Origin: a virus
Taxonomy: Duplodnaviria > Heunggongvirae > Uroviricota > Caudoviricetes
Strand: one strand, 5' to 3'
DNA: 9,677 nt
IMG/VR virus record: IMGVR_UViG_2585427748_000017
Span: 1-9,677 of that record
Shown: positions 1,590 to 6,036 of the stretch, in pieces
Layout of the letters: every line of letters begins with the position of its first letter
How positions within the stretch are numbered: the first letter of the stretch is position 1
Made by a program: the position numbers and the translations under genes
Notes under the pieces: model-generated
What the model was told of the DNA's origin: nothing
Seen by the model: only the letters and a program-made list of their open reading frames with translations
Database searches by the model: none

Positions 1590-1850
1590 CGTGGGTCCTT
1601 TCCGGCGATCCGACCGGTTACGGGGCGGCGACCTCGCGCGTTTTCACTATTTATGAGATTTTTTGAGGGGGTGGTTGTTGTTTAATTGTTTGGTATATCT
1701 AATTGATAAGTAAGGTGAAAATAAAATAAATACAACAACCTTACGATGTGTTTTGATGTCGTCAATGCGAAAAATGTCAATGATATCAAATGGTTTTGCA
1801 AAAACACATGGTTGTTGTTTCGCTTTTTATCGATGACTTATGGAGAGGAG
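1590..1850. other. cos: cos packaging site: cosQ-side flank, cosN (12-nt cohesive end GGGCGGCGACCT at 1623-1634) and cosB region up to the Nu1 start
   Basis: Sequence ATAATTATCATTTCGTGGGTCCTTTCCGGCGATCCGACCGGTTACG|GGGCGGCGACCTCGCGCGTTTTCACTATTTATGA matches the lambda right-end/left-end junction nearly base for base (lambda: ...GGGTCCTTTCCGGCGATCCGACAGGTTACG|GGGCGGCGACCTCGCGGGTTTTCGCTATTTATGA). The downstream approx 215 bp before Nu1 carries direct repeats TGGTTGTTGTTT (1672-1683, 1809-1820) and GTCAATG (1761-1767, 1776-1782), candidate terminase/IHF binding elements. Confidence 0.85.
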
Positions 1851-2357
1851 ATGGCCTTTTTATTGAATAAAAGTGATATGGCCTCCTCCATCGGTATCTC
1901 TGTTCAGGCATTTGATAAATGGGGCGTTCCTCCTGTTGAACGTCGGGGGAGGGAAGTTTTATATGACGTTAAAACTGTACTGGAGATAGATCGCGAGCGG
2001 CGACAACACAATCAGAGAACACCTGATGACGGGGGAGAACTGGAGGAAAGGCTGCTTCGGGCCAGAGCTGAACTGACAGAAGAACAGGCTGTAGCTCAAA
2101 AACTTAAAAATCAGGTAACCGAAGGTAAGCTCATCGATTCAGACTTCTGCGTTTTCGCCCTCAGCAAACTGGCGATGGCATTGTCCAGTACGCTTGATTC
2201 CATTCCGTTATCCATGCAGCGACAGTTCCCGGATTTAACGCCACGTCATATTGACCATCTGAAAACCCTTATTGCAAAGGGCGCAAATCAGTGTGCGCGG
2301 GCAGGGGATAAATTACCGGATTTGCTGGATGAATATATCAGAGCAACAACTGAATAA
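1851..2357 (+). CDS. nu1: terminase small subunit (lambda gpNu1 homologue)
   Basis: ATG 1851 preceded by GGAGAGGAG. Translation MAFLLNKSDMASSIGISVQAFDKWGVPPVERRGREVLYD... aligns with lambda Nu1 (winged-HTH N-terminus, ...FALSKLA...LPLSMQRQFPDLTPRHIDHLK..., C-terminus LLDEYI). The 3' end overlaps the gpA start as in lambda. The ORF-track start at 1746 lies in cosB and is rejected. Confidence 0.85.
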   Translation: MAFLLNKSDMASSIGISVQAFDKWGVPPVERRGREVLYDVKTVLEIDRERRQHNQRTPDDGGELEERLLRARAELTEEQAVAQKLKNQVTEGKLIDSDFCVFALSKLAMALSSTLDSIPLSMQRQFPDLTPRHIDHLKTLIAKGANQCARAGDKLPDLLDEYIRATTE

Positions 2358-4257: not shown

Positions 4258-4447
4258 ACTACAGGCGCTGCGTCAGGCGCGCCTTGATTTATTAACCGGT
4301 AAACGGGTGGTGTCTGTCCAGAAAGATGGTCGCAGAATTGAATATACGGCGGCTTCTCTGGATGAGCTTAACCGGGCGATCAATGATGCGGAGTCGGTAC
4401 TGGGGACAACCCGACGTCGCCGTCGTCCGCTGGGAGTGAGGTTATGA
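4241..4447 (+). CDS. W: head-tail joining / head completion protein (lambda gpW homologue)
   Basis: 68-aa ORF with GGAGGAG 4 nt upstream. [43 protein letters not shown]... matches lambda gpW (…[27 protein letters not shown]…). Overlaps the gpA 3' end; stop TGA 4445-4447 overlaps the B start (ATGA). Confidence 0.85.
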   Translation: [68 protein letters not shown]

Positions 4448-6036
4448 AACGAACGCCTGTCCTGATTGATGTGAACGGCGTTCCGCTTCGTGAGAGTCTC
4501 AGCTACAACGGGGGCGGCGCAGGATTTGGCGGGCAAATGGCGGAGTGGTTGCCACCGGCGCAGAGTGCCGATGCGGCCCTGCTACCCGCGTTGCGTCTGG
4601 GGAATGCCCGGGCAGATGATCTGGTGCGCAATAACGGAATAGCGGCTAATGCGGTGGCTCTGCATAAGGATCACATTGTCGGGCATATGTTTCTGATCAG
4701 CTACCGTCCGAACTGGCGCTGGCTGGGGATGCGGGAGACCGCAGCAAAAAGTTTTGTCGATGAGGTGGAGGCGGCCTGGTCGGAATACGCCGAAGGGATG
4801 TTTGGTGAGATCGACGTGGAAGGAAAACGCACGTTCACGGAATTTATCCGTGAAGGTGTGGGCGTTCATGCGTTTAACGGCGAAATCTTTGTGCAGCCGG
4901 TCTGGGATACGGAGAGTACGCAACTGTTTCGTACGCGTTTTAAAGCCGTGAGTCCGAAACGGGTGGACACGCCTGGACACGGTATGGGGAACCGTTTTCT
5001 GCGGGCCGGTGTGGAGGTCGATCGATATGGCCGTGCCGTCGCGTACCATATTTGTGAGGACGATTTTCCGTTCTCTGGTAGTGGACGATGGGAACGGATC
5101 CCGCGTGAACTTCCCACCGGGCGTCCGGCCATGCTGCATATTTTCGAGCCGGTGGAGGACGGGCAGACCCGTGGAGCCAATCAGTTTTACAGCGTTATGG
5201 AACGGCTGAAGATGCTGGATTCCCTGCAGGCAACACAGCTTCAGTCGGCCATAGTGAAGGCGATGTATGCAGCGACGATTGAAAGTGAACTTGATACCGA
5301 AAAGGCCTTTGAATATATCGCCGGTGCGCCGCAGGGGCAGAAGGATAATCCGCTTATTAATATTCTGGATAAGTTCTCCACCTGGTATGACACGAATCAC
5401 GTGACGCTGGGCGGTGTCAAAATTCCGCACCTTTTCCCCGGTGATGATCTGAAACTTCAGACCGCGCAGGATTCAGACAATGGATTTTCGGCGCTTGAAC
5501 AGGCGCTGCTGCGGTATATCGCCGCCGGTCTTGGCGTTTCCTACGAACAGTTGTCCCGTGATTACTCGAAGGTCAGTTATTCAAGTGCCCGCGCCTCCGC
5601 CAATGAGTCGTGGCGCTATTTTATGGGGCGGCGAAAATTTATTGCGTCCCGGCTGGCCACGCAGATGTTTTCCTGCTGGCTGGAAGAGGCACTTCTTCGG
5701 GGGATTATTCGTCCGCCACGGGCACGGTTTGATTTTTATCAGGCGCGATCAGCCTGGTCACGGGCTGAGTGGATTGGAGCCGGAAGAATGGCCATTGACG
5801 GGCTCAAGGAGGTTCAGGAATCAGTGATGCGCATTGAGGCCGGACTGAGCACGTATGAGAAAGAGCTGGCGCTGATGGGCGAGGATTATCAGGACATTTT
5901 CCGCCAGCAGGTCAGGGAATCTGCAGAGCGGGAAAAAGCCGGACTCTCACGTCCGGTGTGGATAGCGCAGGCGTATCAGCAGCAGATAGCGGAGAGTCGC
6001 AGGCCGGAAGAGGAGACAACACCACGTGAGACGTAA
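4444..6036 (+). CDS. B: portal protein (lambda gpB homologue)
   Basis: 530-aa ORF collinear with lambda gpB ([140 protein letters not shown]). Confidence 0.95.

Follow-up and report, generated by a model that had tools for sequence, protein, structure and literature searches.

Why should a prophage that has lost its capsid shell and tail genes still carry a cos site and a set of packaging genes that look undamaged? The question is raised by a stretch of 9,677 nucleotides (nt), hereafter the window, which makes up positions 1 to 9,677 of the IMG/VR record IMGVR_UViG_2585427748_000017 and corresponds to bases 120-9796 of contig JORO01000073.1 in the draft genome of Escherichia coli 7-233-03_S3_C1 (assembly GCA_000713235.1). 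A first-pass annotation, made from the letters of the window alone, had marked positions 1590-6036, which hold cos, the terminase genes Nu1 and A, the head-tail adaptor gene W and the portal gene B, and had proposed either a recent deletion or an element mobilised by a helper phage, adding that sequence could not tell the two apart. Comparison with related loci decides most of this question and supports the first of these options. We consider it very likely that the window comprises the right half of a lambdoid prophage inserted in ompW, with a phage-21-like module and a cosB/Nu1 specificity of its own, which became defective through one illegitimate deletion of 17.34 kb. The deletion is taken to be recent because it has a single defined joint, is absent from complete genomes, is carried by members of one clone and left behind alleles that are the same as in complete prophages. 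The anatomy of the remnant, its joint, the wild-type alleles, the restriction to one clone and the replacement of the left arm are each documented below.

The contig itself places the element. JORO01000073.1 starts 119 nt left of the window, within phage lysis genes, and continues to the right of the window into a fragment of ompW that encodes 38 amino acids (aa), followed by yciE, yciF, yciG and trpA-E. Because the contig runs rightward into ompW'/yciEFG/trp, the window represents the right-hand portion of an ompW-integrated prophage. The element has the properties of a defective prophage, in that it is chromosomal, as seen from its ompW'/trp flank, lacks morphogenesis genes and carries a deletion that can be mapped against intact relatives. 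One such relative is present in E. coli strain B2.3, whose prophage is likewise integrated in ompW, measures about 48.7 kb and possesses all head and tail genes; its identity to the window is 98.2% over positions 1-7388 and 99.6% over positions 7387-9677. The same gap is spanned by Escherichia phage 204576.

The deletion joint lies at 7387/7388, beyond the region marked in the first-pass annotation, which ends at 6036. It falls within an open reading frame (ORF) at 6026-7759, the 577-aa product of which is on record in one NCBI contig, JORO01000073.1. The first part of this ORF (6026-7387, + strand) is C', codons 1-454 of the 501 codons of the prohead protease/scaffold gene C, as identified by a match to Pfam Peptidase_S49 and by alignment to the intact C of B2.3; the S49 domain is complete and the C-terminal 47 residues are missing. 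The second part (7388-7759, + strand) consists of the last 123 codons of the side-tail-fibre gene stf, with a PHROG tail-fibre match over residues 455-577. The two are in frame, so that codon 454 of C is followed by codon 933 of stf, and the homology between both sides at the joint is limited to the dinucleotide TA at 7387-7388 (+ strand), which reads aggTAagg in C and ctcTAcgg in stf. A single illegitimate event at this shared TA would account for the chimera. Relative to B2.3 and phage 204576, the 17.34 kb that were removed comprise the last 47 codons of C, then D, E, FI, FII, Z, U, V, G, T, H, M, L, K, I, J and lom, and finally codons 1-932 of the 1056 codons of stf (88%). The earlier description of a prophage stripped of its capsid and tail genes is accordingly correct for D, E and the tail genes, and had overlooked that the protease domain of C, the 3' end of stf and the tail-fibre assembly gene tfa are retained.

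The scaffold (Nu3) half of C is variable in length among relatives, the proteins ranging from 451 to 657 aa by gain or loss of repeats of about 30-50 residues (...EQARxILAA...; proteins P0003, P0005, P0035 and P0101). S49 proteins of odd length (451/452, 482, 551 and 657 aa) were considered as candidates for further fusions and rejected, as they reflect differences in repeat number or duplications within the scaffold domain.

The joint was found in none of 5,426 complete E. coli genomes. The chimera, either exact or with one substitution, is present in about six draft assemblies (7-233-03_S3_C1, 2-011-08_S3_C1/C3 and a few others), and in all of these carriers it occupies the same site, adjoining ompW'/trp. 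Between the joint and trpE, across about 10.4 kb, the carriers differ from the window contig at 0-1 positions. Since the joint, the site and the sequence through the chromosomal flank are shared in this manner, the comparison indicates that the joint is a deletion inherited vertically within one clone. Leftward of the joint, divergence of the carriers from the window climbs, from 0.3% in C' through 0.7-1.1% in W-B to 5.1% in A (loci L024-L027 against L002, window 2411-7387), and the sister assemblies possess a cosB/Nu1 module of a different type with their own cosQ and cosN intact. Judged from this pattern, the packaging arm has evidently been replaced within a single clone by homologous recombination with another lambdoid element. 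Exchange of this kind between phages and defective prophages has been described (PMC3945230).

The retained packaging genes gave no sign of decay. Nu1 (1851-2357, + strand) encodes a terminase small subunit of 168 aa (Pfam Phage_Nu1, PF07471, 1e-21), A (2329-4257, + strand) a terminase large subunit of 642 aa (Pfam GpA_ATPase and GpA_nuclease, PF05876 and PF20454), W (4241-4447, + strand) a head-tail adaptor of 68 aa (Pfam gpW) and B (4444-6036, + strand) a portal protein of 530 aa (Pfam Phage_portal_2, 4e-100). All four score above the Pfam cut-offs over full profiles, which bears out the earlier claim that they are full-length, and the overlapping starts that had been described are also present, the overlaps amounting to 29 nt for Nu1/A, 17 nt for A/W, 4 nt for W/B and 11 nt for B/C. 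The A/W, W/B and B/C overlaps match those of phage 21, and the gene lengths equal those in complete prophages. At the protein level, the exact Nu1 sequence is present in over 5,000 blocks of the sequence collection, complete prophages among them; W is 100% identical to alleles of complete prophages; and B is 98.5% identical to the phage 21 portal protein, with no substitution private to the window. A shares 93% aa identity with gp2 of phage 21 and carries a single window-private change, R450C, at a residue that is T in lambda; this allele also occurs on one metagenome scaffold. For gpA we took the functional segments to be those of lambda Y46, the Walker A motif K76-S83, D178/E179, G212-T214, D401, K497 and E586. 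When the segments at these presumed ATPase and nuclease motif positions were compared computationally, they and the portal-binding C-terminus were identical to phage 21 gp2. As far as sequence can tell, the retained cos, Nu1, A, W and B are therefore wild-type alleles, and we infer that the terminase would still be capable of binding cosB and nicking cosN if the late genes were transcribed.

The cos site is equally well preserved. The cosN junction had been described as lambda-like, with nicks at 1622 and 1634, and both points were upheld, the nicks by the position of the cohesive-end 12-mer. In an alignment with lambda, phage 21 and PhiR12_1, cosQ and cosN are conserved and the bases on either side of the 12-mer align. 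The cosQ heptamer GGGTCCT is located at 1593-1599 (+ strand), 23 nt upstream of the first nick, and matches the annotated cosQ of phage 21 with the same spacing. The cohesive-end 12-mer GGGCGGCGACCT occupies 1623-1634 (+ strand) and is identical in lambda, phage 21, PhiR12_1 and 10 related loci; the predicted nicks fall at 1622/1623 on the top strand and at 1634/1635 on the bottom strand. A 46-nt pattern extending from cosQ to cosN has a single match in the window, at 1593-1638, where 0 are expected (200 shuffles). In the same alignment, about 260 nt upstream of cos are nearly identical to lambda, and cosB is of a different type in each of the window, lambda, phage 21 and PhiR12_1. From cosQ through the start of Nu1, the window does not differ by a single base from loci with complete sets of head and tail genes.

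Within cosB (1635-1850, + strand), which is of a specificity type unlike that of lambda or phage 21, we recognised an R3-like site GGTTGTTGT at 1673-1681 (+ strand; offset 51-59 from the left cohesive end), a site resembling that of integration host factor (IHF) at 1696-1708 with one mismatch (offset 74-86, the same as I1 of phage 21), an inverted R2-like copy of GGTTGTTGT at 1732-1740 (- strand; offset 110-118) and an R1-like copy of GGTTGTTGT at 1810-1818 (+ strand; offset 188-196). The strict IHF consensus had no match in cosB, and a match at the expected offset was obtained only when one mismatch was allowed. In the annotation of phage 21, R3 lies at 50-65, I1 at 74-86 and the inverted R2 at 107-122, and the R3, I1 and R2 offsets of the window agree with these. 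The cosB of the window would thus keep the phage 21 architecture with a different repeat sequence. The type defined by these repeats (GGTTGTTGT) together with the N-terminal DNA-binding half of Nu1 (window 1635-2100) is absent from the isolated phages of the collection and, despite this, very common in E. coli prophages. The nearest isolated-phage matches are PhiR12_1 for the C-terminal half of Nu1 and N15 (gp1, at the DNA level) for the N-terminal part.

How, then, is the intactness of cos, Nu1, A, W and B to be explained? In our reading these genes are intact because the deletion is recent and because the arm that carries them is still exchanged by homologous recombination with lambdoid phages and prophages. 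Selection for a satellite lifestyle is unnecessary to explain the intact cos and packaging genes, and the locus illustrates a known path of prophage decay, not a new kind of mobile element. Three points weigh against this reading. The same deletion exists in at least two variants with different, fully intact packaging modules, which can be taken as a sign that selection maintains it; the left arm of the prophage, with int, the regulators, the replication genes and Q, is on another contig, so that the window covers the right part only; and gpA carries the private R450C change.

Two known elements resemble the remnant closely. Phage 21 (Jouyvirus), from its cos through gp1, gp2, gp3, the portal gene and C/Nu3, shares 96% nt identity with the window over positions 2473-7388, with identical gene lengths, and has the same cosQ-cosN spacing and R3-I1-R2 layout. 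It differs in that its cosB repeats and the N-terminal half of its Nu1 protein (gp1) belong to another specificity type, with 30% aa identity to the window, and in that it is complete and viable. The defective prophage DLP12 of K-12 shows the same gene order and decay pattern as the window, with ylcI, cosQ-cosN, nohD (Nu1), aaaD (a fragment of A), tfaD, ybcY and tfaX. Like the window, it retains an intact cosQ/cosN and a Nu1 homologue, after which an internal deletion fuses a gene for packaging or the head to the tail-fibre end. Unlike that of the window, the DLP12 deletion is larger and extends from early A into tfaD, so that A, W, B and C are gone; moreover, DLP12 possesses a lambda-type cosB, a ybcY pseudogene and a different integration site. 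In the window, by contrast, A, W and B are complete and the methyltransferase gene is intact. We regard DLP12 as the closest known object, and the remnant as comparable to a younger DLP12.

The similarity to DLP12 extends to both ends of the window. To the right of the chimera, tfa (7759-8343, + strand; 194 aa; Pfam Caudo_TAP, 1e-44) is apparently intact and is followed by an intact gene for a YbcY-like class I S-adenosylmethionine-dependent methyltransferase of 222 aa (8398-9066, - strand), the counterpart of which is a pseudogene in the K-12 DLP12. Next comes a tfa fragment equivalent to tfaX (9123-9392, + strand), a direct repeat, about 90% identical, of the 3' end of tfa, and then the remnant of a tail-fibre/DUF4376 gene (9396-9677, + strand), which leads toward attR and the truncated ompW just beyond the window. 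The right end of DLP12 (tfa, ybcY, tfaX) is 97% identical to window 7905-9369. The direct repeat as a whole spans about 215 nt (8178-8392 and 9227-9442; about 90% identity) and includes the 3' end of tfa and a hairpin-containing tail; its two copies flank the methyltransferase gene, which lies on the opposite strand, and the same arrangement exists in DLP12. We also noted an Rfam IS009 match at 8102-8300 (+ strand), with 224 bits against a gathering score of 117, wholly within the tfa coding sequence, and the IS009 model appears to have been built on tfa gene sequence.

At the left end of the window, upstream of cos, the lysis cassette ends with the Rz spanin gene (140-607, + strand; Pfam Phage_lysis, 6e-48), in which Rz1 is embedded (360-545; PHROG Rz-like spanin). 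A small gene of the DUF3950 YlcI/YnfO family (1231-1416, - strand; Pfam PF13132) sits where DLP12 has ylcI, ahead of cos, and its counterparts in strain B2.3 and K-12 carry the annotation YlcI/YnfO. Between Rz and this gene lies an AT-rich insert (750-1250; 38% GC) with an ORF at 958-1098, located where lambda has bor, that encodes a hydrophobic protein of 46 aa and has neither a PHROG nor a Pfam match. The insert is a candidate moron, an accessory gene with no role in phage growth.

While a single deletion in one clone explains the locus, the position of the joint raised the possibility that the deletion was produced by a site-specific or strongly hot-spotted process and not by random illegitimate recombination. 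Such a process would be compatible with our reading of the locus as a recently deleted prophage, and we consider it possible, though we hold it only tentatively. In an independent prophage integrated at prfC, the C breakpoint is reused to the exact nucleotide, codon 454 being fused to a different stf 3' module. This second stf 3' module is joined at one identical position to five left partners, namely C, the major capsid gene E, a portal fragment of an unrelated cdt prophage, a lambda-type A, at a joint position that overlaps the DLP12 joint, and one unidentified sequence. Two IMG/VR contigs, in turn, show the stf module of the window attached at the same TA to other sequences, a phage-21 Nu1 and the N-terminal domain of an Stf. 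All these recurrent joints have only TA in common with their intact parents. The stf breakpoint of the window furthermore falls on the mosaic boundary seen most often in E. coli stf genes, K-12 stfR included. The reuse of identical TA breakpoints in C and stf of independent prophages suggests hot-spotted deletion. As a matter of speculation, replication pausing with template switching at the boundary between constant and variable parts of stf would fit fixed end-points with 2-nt microhomology; a recombinase acting on TA-centred sites is the other candidate.

Several observations speak against a hot-spot. The motif common to the breakpoints is TA only; they contain no site of a known recombinase, and no inverted or direct partner site was found. 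The survey was of limited size and took the stf side as its starting point, so that the clustering of right-hand end-points is partly an ascertainment effect. PinR is the obvious candidate enzyme, its gene adjoining tail-fibre modules in relatives; the protein is only 38% identical to PinE. The pix site of e14 is TTCTCCCAAACC-AA-GGTTT, and PinE, PinQ and PinR use AAACC-NN-GGTTT sites (PMC12529663). Such sites are absent at the C and stf breakpoints, where we also found no 26-bp crossover site with an inverted partner of the kind used by Gin, Hin, Cin and Pin, and we therefore rejected a Pin-type invertase as the cause of the deletion. The sole resemblance to the pix site is a TTTGATAA stretch in one stf module.

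A C-site pattern had 0 matches in viral contigs and an stf pattern 0 matches in metagenome contigs. A 17-nt stf pattern gave 50 matches in genome contigs, none of which extended past the pattern, so that all of them are chance matches. Besides 7387-7388 in the window, the recurrent joints of independent E. coli prophages lie at 6283-6285 in locus L021, about 6001-6003 in L028, about 6000-6002 in L029, 4002-4003 in L030, about 7299 in L034, about 3668 in L035 and about 2291 (- strand) in L036 and L037; they fall on one position in C, one in a lambda-type A and the constant/variable boundary of two different stf 3' modules. Many more in-frame fusions involve a histidine-rich stf end, which is attached to fragments of E, J, A, R, ParB, T, Z or holin genes; an in-frame bias among fusions (5 of 8) was not significant. 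Locus L029 (3026-5218), a prfC prophage of E. coli Z0117EC0005, has two separate deletions, one of which joins A to C, with loss of W, B and the 5' part of C, and the other E to stf at the recurrent TA. L029 shows stepwise decay of the same module. Its first deletion was considered as another use of the C site and rejected, as it lies elsewhere in C and has a 6-nt microhomology.

A broader proposal is that truncation is site-preferential, such that TA-centred breakpoints at the stf boundary, one in C and one in A repeatedly yield remnants with cos and terminase and without heads or tails, the present locus and possibly DLP12 among them; the agent could be template switching driven by replication pauses, or else a recombinase or nuclease. 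We regard this generalisation as doubtful. The recurrent TA breakpoints are nevertheless the only feature of the locus that might repay further work.

The second option of the first-pass annotation, a helper-dependent element that keeps cos, its own terminase, W and the portal for packaging into the capsids and tails of a co-resident lambdoid phage and spreads horizontally, appears improbable to us. It has in its favour that cos and all four packaging and portal genes are wild type, and that two different intact packaging modules accompany the deletion among several isolates. In addition, the C-terminus of gpA and the portal are of the phage 21 type, common to many E. coli prophages, so that capsid proteins of a helper would probably be compatible. 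In O157 Sakai, lambdoid prophages defective in morphogenesis are documented to be packaged and transferred, and also to complement one another and recombine (Asadulghani et al. 2009, PMC2669165). The Sakai pool resembles the window in that its members are lambdoid and combine an intact terminase with defective head or tail functions, and they share near-identical morphogenesis modules with their neighbours; the difference is that packaging and transfer were measured in Sakai.

Against mobilisation stands first of all the distribution of the joint, as its absence from the complete genomes and the near-identity of every carrier at the same site and for about 10 kb into the chromosomal flank argue for clonal descent, and no sign was found that the remnant has spread horizontally. 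Satellites such as phage-inducible chromosomal islands (PICIs), capsid-forming PICIs (cf-PICIs) and P4 are like the window in taking missing virion parts from another phage and in using a cos site. They are small, conserved, horizontally spread units with helper-sensing regulators, whereas the window holds a one-off deletion derivative with clonal inheritance only: a conserved compact architecture in many unrelated hosts was not seen, the chimera being confined to about six closely related assemblies. Among the ORFs of the window, Pfam and PHROG searches detected no satellite-type genes for sensing a helper or redirecting capsids, and E and D are deleted. Cf-PICIs, by comparison, encode capsid, portal and terminase and borrow tails only. 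With a helper of the same cos type, moreover, a terminase of its own would be superfluous.

Size is a further obstacle. If late transcription reached the remnant, one would expect Nu1 to bind the cosB repeats, gpA to nick cosN and packaging to run rightward, with proheads (E, D) and tails (Z-J) having to come from another phage. Assuming a left arm like that of B2.3, the remnant would measure about 31 kb. Stable lambda-type packaging has a lower limit of about 37-38 kb, and a dimer of a 31-kb remnant would exceed the upper limit. At about 31 kb, the remnant would fall short of this minimum and is unlikely to be transferred efficiently as a unit. Likelier fates of the remnant would be the rescue of its genes through recombination by other phages, or abortive packaging from one cos rightward toward trp.

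We dismiss as extremely improbable that the C::stf joint was created by misassembly in a short-read draft holding several near-identical lambdoid prophages, as the draft source and the end of the contig within repeated lysis genes might suggest. At least five other assemblies, produced in different projects, arrived at this joint independently, its two sides share 2 nt only, far below an assembler k-mer, and the contig runs unbroken to the right of the joint into attR and the chromosome.

Collectively, the locus represents a well-preserved early stage of prophage decay, in which the deletion joint and the intact progenitor type can both be identified; as a locus it is of minor importance. If truncation does prove to be site-preferential, prophage domestication in E. 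coli would follow preferred deletion paths. The comparison of the carriers implies that the packaging arm of a defective prophage can be exchanged by recombination within a single clone, and the remnant may serve as a natural substrate for studying whether cos and terminase alone allow a remnant to be cut or packaged in situ and whether such a remnant passes genes to incoming phages.

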